A DNA stretch of 8,467 nucleotides from a virus. Lineage: Duplodnaviria > Heunggongvirae > Uroviricota > Caudoviricetes. The position numbers were made by a program. Each line of letters opens with the position of its first letter. Position 1 is the stretch's first letter. The stretch lies in the IMG/VR virus record IMGVR_UViG_2711768013_000004; one strand, written 5' to 3'. Shown piece by piece: positions 1 through 3,000 of this stretch.

Positions 1-3000
1 CCGCCTGAACCGGCGGGCTGTCATAACACTGTGTTACCTGGCTAATCAGAATTTATAACCGACACCCACGATGAAACCGTCAGTGCGCCAGAGACGTGTT
101 GCTGTGGCGACCGTCATCACTTCCGGTCAGCACATCGTGCGTTTTCCCCTTATTGTCAGTTACGCGGATATAATCCCCGGAAAAAGTCGACACACGGCTG
201 TAAGCCACACCCGCCATCGCATACGCGCTGAACCATTCATTCACGCGCACAGACGGCCCCGCCATCACGCTGAACCAGCGGTTACGCACGGAATCTTCAT
301 GCCAGCGGGTATCGCTGTAACGGGTCAGCTGGCGATTCTTGTCTCCTGCATAGCTGAATGACGTCACCAGCCCCAGCGTATCCGTAAACTCATAACGGTA
401 TTTCACGTTAATCCCGTTCAGATCATCACTGCCGGGAACGTTGGTCCGGGCATGAAGATACCCCGCGCTCAGCGTGGACTGATGTTCAGACGCCCATGCA
501 GGCGCACCGGATACGGCCAGGCAAATGGCTGCGGACAAAATGGCTGCACAAACTTTACGCATAATTACCTCTCGCTTTTCTGCAATAAAAAAGGCGTCAT
601 TCCTGACGCCATTTATTGGGGTTATAAATATTTCAACGAATACTGATGCCGGAAGCCGCTTTTTTGGTCACAATCACCGTACAGTCGGTGATATTGCCTG
701 CCCCCTGATTGCCTTTCTGGAAAATCTTAAACTCCAGAGTGACGCTACCACCACCACTAGGCATATCAATAACTGCACTGTAACTACCGGGAATGGCCCC
801 TTTAGTTTCTCTGGATGCGATTAATACGCCGTTTTTGCGAACTTCAAAACCATAACCCGTGTATCGCGTGCCTCCTGGGTTATTTCCGCTCCCCGGATCG
901 TCATACGCTATACCGTTAAAAATAATGGGCGGAATAATAATCTGGCGGTCAAAGTTATGATCATCGCTTATGGTGACTGTAACCGTCCCGTTTGGTGTTT
1001 CCGTGTTACCCCACGTACCAGCCTGTTTCGGAAATGATTTGGATACAGCTTTAACGAAGTCACCTCTGACCTGAGTCGCCTCCAGCATGCCCTTAATCGT
1101 ACAGTTTTCATTTACCGTGACATTGTTGAGCGTCCCGGCGTTCGCATTCACACTGCCACTGATATCCGCATTTTTAGCGGTCAGCTTTCCGTCCGGAGTC
1201 AGGGAAAATGCCGATGGATTTCCACCGCTGGTAATGGTGGGGGCCGTCAGGCGTTTCAGGAACACGTCGTTCATGAATATCTGATCGCCCTGACCAACAA
1301 ACATCGGTTTTGTGTTGCCATTCGCAGGATTAACCATCGCAATCCTGTCCGCCGCCAGCAGCACCTGACTCTGCATGCCGTCAGGGGTGTTCTCAATACC
1401 GGCACCAATACCCGCGATATAAAGGCGTCCGTCCTGCATCTGCTGCAGCTTCACAGCCCACATGCTGTTCAGGTTATTATTTGTATCAACCTGAACCTTC
1501 TGTATCTGCTGAATTGCCGCACTCTGGTCTTCCAGTTTCTTATTGACGGTCTGCGTGATTTCATTGCTGACATCCGTAATGGACGTCCTGATTTCAGCCA
1601 GGTCAGGCGCAAGCTGACCGTTATCAATCTGCGTCCACAGCTCCTGAGCCAGATGGGTTTTCCCTATCTCGCCTTTGAAAAAATCCAGATAACCGGATGC
1701 ATCATCACTCGGCTGACCAACAGCCTCCACGAATGCCGATTTGCCAACGGTGTTCACACTGCGGATATAAAAGTAATAATCATGGCCCGGTTTGATATTG
1801 ATACTGGCGGCTATCCAGTACAGCGCCGTGCCAAGATAGCGTGCTGTGGTTTCAACCTGCCTGATATCCGCAATCCGCTTTTCCGAGAACCAGAACTCAA
1901 ACTGTACCGTCGGATCATAAACCGCAAGATGCGGCGTGGCGGTTATCTGAAAATAGCCCGGCGTCAGCTCAATCCGCGACAGCGCTGCCGGTGCGGCAAT
2001 CCGGAACGATACCGACGCCGGATCGCCCTGCTGCCCCCACGCATTTACTGCCCGGACTGTCAGCCTGTAGTTCCCCAGCGCCAGTTGTGTGAAGCGGTAA
2101 GTGGTTTCCGTCGTCCGGGCCGTGCTGACCAGCCGCTCACTGCCGTCATCCGCTGTTACGGTCAGACGGAGCAGGAAGCTCACGCCCTTCACCACCTTCG
2201 GCGTGTCCCAGCGCGCCAGCACCTGATATTCCCCGCTGTCTGCGGTGACTTCGGCAGTCAGGTGCTGCACCGCTGGCGGCGTGACACCATTCACCGTGCC
2301 GCTCTGGTCGCCGTCAAAGTGCGCCCCGTTATCCACGATGGCTTCTTTTTCCGGCACATGCTGCACGGCGGTGATGGCATACGTGCCGTCGTCGTTCTCA
2401 CGGATACTCACGCAGCGGAACAATCGCTGGTGCAGCGTCGGCAGCTTCAGCCCCCACACGCTGTATTCAGCAACACCGTCAGGAACACGGCTCACTTTTA
2501 CCTTCACGCCGTCGGTGACGGACTGGACCTCCACGCTGACCGGATTCCCCTGCCCGTCAACCAGGCTTATCAGCGTGGTGCCGGAGGATGGCAGCGTGAT
2601 TTCACGGTCGAGCGTCAGCGTCCGGGTCTGGCTGTTTACCGCCAGCACGCGCCCGCCGATGCTGATACCGGCATAGTCATCATCGCAGATTTCAATGACA
2701 TCGCCCGGTACATGACGAAGCCCTTCAGCACCCACGCTGAAATCCACGGTCTGCGTCTCCAGCAGTTCCGTTTTAATCAGCCACAGCCCGGCGCGGTGTN
2801 NNNNNNNNNNNNNNNNNNNNNNNNNNNNNNNNNNNNNNNNNNNNNNNNNNNNNNNNNNNNNNNNNNNNNNNNNNNNNNNNNNNNNNNNNNNNNNNNNNNN
2901 NNNNNNNNNNNNNNNNNNNNNNNNNNNNNNNNNNNNNNNNNNNNNNNNNNNNNNNNNNNNNNNNNNNNNNNNNNNNNNNNNNNNNNNNNNNNNNNNNNNN

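Follow-up and report, generated by a model that had tools for sequence, protein, structure and literature searches.

The tail tip protein J encoded in this DNA carries, as judged by sequence comparison, the receptor-binding domain of phage 434, the classical h434 host-range type, and not that of lambda. The reading that we favour, at a probability of about 0.85, is that a 434-type domain is joined to an otherwise lambda-like J with an exchanged shaft, that it was brought in via a conserved linker, and that OmpC is the likely porin.

The window, by which we mean the whole stretch of 8467 bases analysed (IMG/VR record IMGVR_UViG_2711768013_000004, Caudoviricetes), is the distal tail module of a lambda-like prophage, with all tail genes on the minus strand (Table 1). 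The gene order was H-M-L-K-I-J-lom, in agreement with the called genes of related loci, and J stood in its expected place. A terminator is annotated in the phage 434 record at the site equivalent to that of the hairpin between J and lom. A 466-aa ORF (1653..3053) lies on the plus strand opposite J, and other long ORFs are likewise antisense to the tail genes; all were read as by-products of composition.

Table 1. Features of the window (approximate boundaries are marked with a tilde).
Feature	Position	Strand	Basis and remarks
lom	80..562	-	Ail/Lom outer-membrane protein; downstream of J; context only, outside the receptor-binding domain
Terminator-like hairpin GGCGTCAGGAATGACGCC followed by TTTTTT	593..610	-	Between J and lom; consensus scan
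J, tail tip / central fibre protein	633..4341	-	ORFs 633..3131 and 2773..4341; stop codon 633..635, last codon 636..638
Last 162 codons of J	636..1121	-	Last turn of the beta-prism fibre and Ig-like receptor-binding domain, 434 (h434) allele
Pfam Ig_GpJ_C (PF12421)	639..1046	-	90.0 bits against a cutoff of 26.2; profile positions 1-134 of 135
Conserved linker in the beta-prism	1122..1280	-	90-97% DNA identity to both lambda and 434; includes NANAGTL
Second divergent module, alpha-helical shaft and upper fibre	~1281..1720	-	Lambda aa 806-925; third allele
I	4402..5073	-	ORFs and alignment to lambda and 434
K	4971..5714	-	ORFs and alignment to lambda and 434
L	5720..6418	-	ORFs and alignment to lambda and 434
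M	6418..6747	-	ORFs and alignment to lambda and 434
H, 3' two-thirds	from 6744 upward	-	ORFs and alignment to lambda and 434

A three-way alignment set the J proteins of lambda and phage 434 beside a full-length J from a near-identical locus. Against lambda gpJ aa 974-1132, the C-terminal block (636..1121) showed 64 identities in 153 positions (41.8%, or 37.6% when 17 gap columns are included). The gap columns fell in four segments, which were separated by conserved segments. A tblastn search of lambda records with the 162 aa gave 37.7% identity at E = 1e-20, which puts the homology of the block to lambda gpJ far beyond chance. The lambda-type LamB-binding allele should be highly similar to gpJ aa 974-1132, including the loop segments, and the block was not. 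The original prediction, that about 160 aa at the end of J are diverged from, yet homologous to, lambda, was borne out: the 41.8% obtained by pairwise alignment lay far below the 90% or more expected of an unchanged domain.

The divergence was confined to a sharply bounded region. BLASTP of the last 288 aa of J against lambda gpJ gave 52% identity overall, very unevenly distributed. In 60-nt windows, DNA identity to lambda was 95-97% at 1209..1120 and then dropped to 45-67% below about 1119. Over the block, DNA identity to lambda was 30-65%, against 85-100% to phage 434 across 1119..640. The drop at about 1120 came within a few codons of the predicted start of the divergent block, which was therefore essentially exact.

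The domain nevertheless resembles that of lambda in Pfam family, Ig-like fold, trimeric beta-prism tip and position in the protein, and framework strands are conserved between them (for example DDH.FDRQI, NG..I and DMP.G.G). The two are set apart by the low identity and the gap columns, and the lambda domain binds LamB (PMC11101478).

Compared with the C-terminus of 434 J (OL657226, UMO75286.1), the domain was identical at 155 of 164 positions (94.5%) without indels. The match was full-length and lay above the 90% that we set for assignment to the 434 allele. The length and the C-terminal end (...AASGISIR) are shared with 434, as are the conserved linker upstream and the presence of lom downstream of J. 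The differences are that 434 has a lambda-type shaft, a J of 1137 aa and an intact lom, whereas the shaft in the window is a third allele, longer by 28 aa, J measures 1165 aa in near-identical loci, lom is truncated, and the receptor-binding domain carries nine substitutions.

Similar domains were found in other phages. Those of phages Evi and 2B8 were 99.4% identical to that of the window, and those of many Stx-converting and other temperate coliphages 95-98% identical. Across 243 phage records the identities were bimodal, with 74 deposited phage genomes at 90% or more (the 434-type allele) and 169 below 60%. This indicated discrete allele classes. When the receptor-binding domains of the best 120 database matches were clustered at 80% identity, at least seven classes were obtained, and the 434 class, the A8 class and lambda each fell separately. 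By these comparisons the gpJ receptor-binding domain in the block is of a separate, alternative allele and did not arise by gradual drift. The allele is common: its DNA was present in 2114 of 5426 complete E. coli genomes (about 39%).

The family and fold assignments agreed with this placement. The domains in J were ordered Ig_J, Ig_J_second and Phage_Tail_Tip, followed by Ig_GpJ_C at the extreme C-terminus, and the profile match of the last was well above the curated cutoff of the family. The last 210 aa of J were modeled as a monomer with AlphaFold2 from an alignment of 29 sequences. The model was all-beta over residues 70-201, and the 10-residue blocks covering 71-200 had mean pLDDT values of 67-97. 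Over the trimeric prism part the model was poor (pLDDT 36-64), as expected for a monomer.

In a Foldseek search, the top four PDB matches were 8xck, 9wca, 8xcj and 9wcb (E from 1e-17 to 3e-15; TM 0.69 normalised to 9wcb_F). These are the lambda central fibre (8XCK), the same with LamB (8XCJ), A8 gpJ (9WCA) and A8 gpJ with OmpC (9WCB). A sequence search of the PDB returned the same lambda and A8 entries. The predicted C-terminus of J thus matched the solved lambda and A8 fibres, and has the Ig-like beta-sandwich of the solved lambda gpJ domain.

The A8 protein is a chimera that joins lambda J, within the same conserved linker, to a naturally occurring prophage gpJ domain; it binds OmpC (of E. 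coli EDL933 in 9WCB). It was the best PDB sequence match and a top fold match. The A8 domain was, however, only 44% identical to that of the window, with 10% gaps, well short of the roughly 80% or more expected within one allele type, and it fell in another cluster at the 80% threshold. The two are too far apart for the solved OmpC complex to serve as a guide, and the case for OmpC in the window is one of homology to 434.

That case is as follows. Over aa 1-925 the J proteins of lambda and 434 share 98-99% identity, and the C-terminal block is the one place where they diverge substantially. Passages in PMC11101478 and PMC3509688 report that OmpC takes the place of LamB as the receptor both for phage 434 and for lambda with the 434 J. 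The statement in the relevant passage of PMC3509688 goes back to Fuerst and Bingham 1978, and Hantke 1978 is the source given for 434 and OmpC in a passage of the Eligo preprint. Retargeting by gpJ domains has been demonstrated with natural prophage gpJ C-termini, which, when fused at lambda aa 964 in particles whose side fibre had been replaced, switched them from LamB to OmpC (PMC11338833). The Gifsy-1 paper, in which phage 434 does not figure, confirms that OmpC is among the outer-membrane receptors of another lambda-like J.

Since the domain is the 434 allele and 434 is reported to use OmpC, a receptor other than that of lambda is the best-supported reading. The original prediction had proposed such a change of receptor, and the 94.5% identity to the 434 domain argues for it. 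The receptor of the window J is most likely OmpC rather than LamB, to judge from this homology.

The classical marker has to be read with some care. The lambda h434 imm21 hybrid (OM418627, locus 5059..7307) has from 434 not only the 3' end of J but also lom, the side tail fibre (437 aa) and a short chaperone. The h434 marker alone therefore cannot separate the J domain from the side fibre. PDB sequence and fold searches found no structure of a 434-type domain bound to OmpC, and literature searches on the receptors of the closest phages (PhiR/ECOR13 phages, h434 with OmpC, and a 2026 receptor-prediction preprint) gave nothing usable.

The nine substitutions relative to 434 lie within the last 162 aa of J, and six of them cluster in two patches. 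In the first, SFPKQAG...N in the window corresponds to AFPKKVG...D in 434; in the second, IFQKGNQG corresponds to VFHKGNQR. Four of the changes alter charge (K to Q, D to N, H to Q and R to G), and both patches fall where the alignment to lambda has indels. From their nature and position, the substitutions could alter which OmpC variants are recognised.

One alternative to a plain 434 specificity is therefore that these substitutions have shifted it, toward some OmpC variants (such as that of Shigella sonnei) or toward another porin such as OmpF. The clustering and charge changes fit such a shift. So does the finding that the natural A8 and 1A2 domains discriminate between OmpC variants (PMC11338833). 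Work cited in a passage of PMC11101478 further indicates that small numbers of changes alter porin use, a few point mutations in J being enough to let lambda use OmpF. Against a shift stand the 94.5% identity to 434 without indels and the conservative nature of several of the changes (V/I, S/A and A/V). The same or near-identical alleles (99.4%) also occur in phages propagated on E. coli. We consider a shift of specificity improbable, and retain the 434-type domain with OmpC as the likely porin.

Upstream of the domain, J is a mosaic. The first 805 aa were 97.1% identical to lambda. The linker was 95.8% identical to lambda aa 926-973 (48 residues), and many of its columns were nearly invariant across 29 diverse alleles. 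Between them, the module corresponding to lambda aa 806-925 shared only 51.7% identity with lambda and 52.5% with 434; there were 28 gap columns, the module being 28 aa longer than in either phage. Over the same residues lambda and 434 are 99.2% identical to each other. DNA identity in this module fell to 2-35% around 1480..1660. The original prediction that J matches lambda closely through FMNDVFL thus held for aa 1-805 and aa 926-973, but it failed for aa 806-925, where the 28-aa insertion lies.

The breakpoints were abrupt, at about 1120 and at about 1280/1720. By its sequence, J in the window is a mosaic of three modules, namely hub and FNIII, shaft, and receptor-binding domain. Among the database matches, the alternative shaft allele was combined with a 434-type domain in 10 proteins and with other domain types in 25. 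In phage 434 a 434 domain sits on a lambda shaft, and in lambda both modules are of lambda type. Each of the four pairings of shaft and domain is thus represented, and this requires recombination between the modules. The receptor-binding domain assorts independently of the upstream shaft allele. Together with the discrete classes and the abrupt edge at the linker, this upheld the view that the domain had been exchanged as a unit.

The linker is the likely site of homologous recombination for this exchange. Lambda aa 964, the fusion point of functional gpJ chimeras, lies inside it (PMC11338833).

The shaft may have consequences of its own. The shaft region of lambda flips and refolds once the receptor is bound, and lengthening it might therefore affect triggering or the length of the fibre. 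The alpha-helical shaft itself is formed by lambda residues 809-861 (PMC11101478); the module further takes in the top of the beta-prism. Taken with the nine substitutions, the 28-aa longer shaft might make this a functionally distinct tail tip, with a range of OmpC variants differing from that of 434 or with another porin; we regard this as unlikely.

The close relatives of the window are numerous. Positions 1..2799 matched loci in six chromosomal assemblies, finished or draft, at 99.86% identity (4 mismatches). J was intact at 1165 aa in five of these loci and called at 1151 aa in one. The 1165-aa J was found on at least 1000 contigs, under the names "host specificity protein J [Shigella sonnei]" and "MULTISPECIES [Shigella]". 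The J 3' half and lom are shared with phages phi458, ev099, ev243, cdtI and Ayreon at 95-96% DNA identity. Between the window and Evi, 2B8, these five phages, mEp332 and the Shigella sonnei J, there was essentially no difference that bears on the domain.

The coliphage records carry 82 more bases than the window over the stretch from the J 3' half to lom, which is consistent with a deletion that truncates the window lom. The product was 160 aa long, its Pfam Ail_Lom match covered profile positions 1-159 of 199, and about 80 nt that are present in phage 434 and in the closest E. coli and phage records were absent. The truncated Lom is probably a non-functional barrel. The exact 160-aa protein was present on 861 contigs, under the name "putative outer membrane protein [Shigella sonnei Ss046]". 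An exact 60-nt search with the deletion junction gave no match in genome contigs; in viral contigs it gave 10 IMG/VR contigs, which supplied the sequence under the N run in J.

In the related chromosomal loci L013-L018, IS1 transposase genes (InsA / DDE_Tnp_IS1) were seen just beyond the side tail fibre and chaperone, at about 11000..11750. Such a neighbourhood fits a prophage undergoing decay in Shigella. Given the truncated lom and the IS1 genes nearby in the related loci, the prophage of the window may be defective, and the domain is perhaps not in current use.

Such decay raises the possibility that the divergence from lambda arose in place, either under relaxed constraint or by diversifying selection, and not by a modular swap. 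The truncated lom and the neighbouring IS1 genes agree with relaxed constraint, and a passage in PMC11101478 cites diversifying selection on the gpJ C-terminus. The state of J argues against this: the ORF is intact in most of the related loci and recurs on the many contigs noted above. The DNA of the block is near to 434 and far from lambda, with sharp boundaries, and the identity classes are discrete, with all four module combinations present. In-place decay or drift was therefore rejected as very improbable, and acquisition of the 434-type domain as a module is preferred.

The integrity of the assembly also had to be considered. The window contains three N runs (2800..3045, 6948..7187 and 7837..7857). 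The first, of 246 N, interrupts J at a place where near-identical loci have 35 nt, so the size of this gap in the window is not a true length. From start to stop, J measured 3709 nt in the window with an apparently broken frame, and 3498 nt in the near-identical loci, where it is one intact ORF of 1165 aa.

In H, a perfect 128-nt direct repeat (7709..7836 and 7962..8089) flanks the 21-N run, which one copy abuts. Past the repeat, the sequence following the copy beside the gap lacks 51 codons of lambda H, in frame and between two TLE motifs, and that following the other copy continues as lambda H. A scaffolder seems to have joined two H alleles or overlapping contig ends.

The N runs, with 246 N in place of only 35 nt, and the suggestion of mis-joined contigs in H would be compatible with a junction between lambda-like J and 434-like domain made by assembly from a genome with several lambdoid prophages, but we put the chance of this close to nil and rejected it for the J 3' half, since 1..2799 is free of N, independent gap-free assemblies, including multi-megabase contigs, reproduce the whole stretch end to end at 99.86%, and the phi458, ev099 and cdtI genomes show the same arrangement at 95-96% identity. 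The junction between domain and backbone is thus real.

We interpreted the 434-type domain on a lambda-like J as follows. The block encodes the distal end of the trimeric central tail fibre, that is, the last beta-prism layer and the Ig-like domain of gpJ. It was most likely acquired through homologous recombination in the conserved linker of about 150 nt, which encodes ...NANAGTL. If the tip works as in lambda and in the A8 gpJ-OmpC complex, a trimeric outer-membrane porin would take up loops from the bottom of the three receptor-binding domains. On this analogy, binding would spread the domains, and this would trigger the fibre rearrangement that opens the tail. For the 434-type allele, this porin would most likely be OmpC and not LamB.

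Exchange of the gpJ domain, and the contrast between 434 with OmpC and lambda with LamB, have been textbook knowledge since the 1970s, and the system is now structurally characterised and used in engineering. The feature described here is the well-known h434 receptor-binding module; the arrangement was already known, and this is an ordinary variant of it. The J protein illustrates a three-module mosaic of hub and FNIII, shaft, and receptor-binding domain, in which the conserved linker serves as an exchange point. The practical value of the finding lies in annotation: this J is to be read as of the h434 class, with predicted use of OmpC, and not as "lambda-like, LamB".
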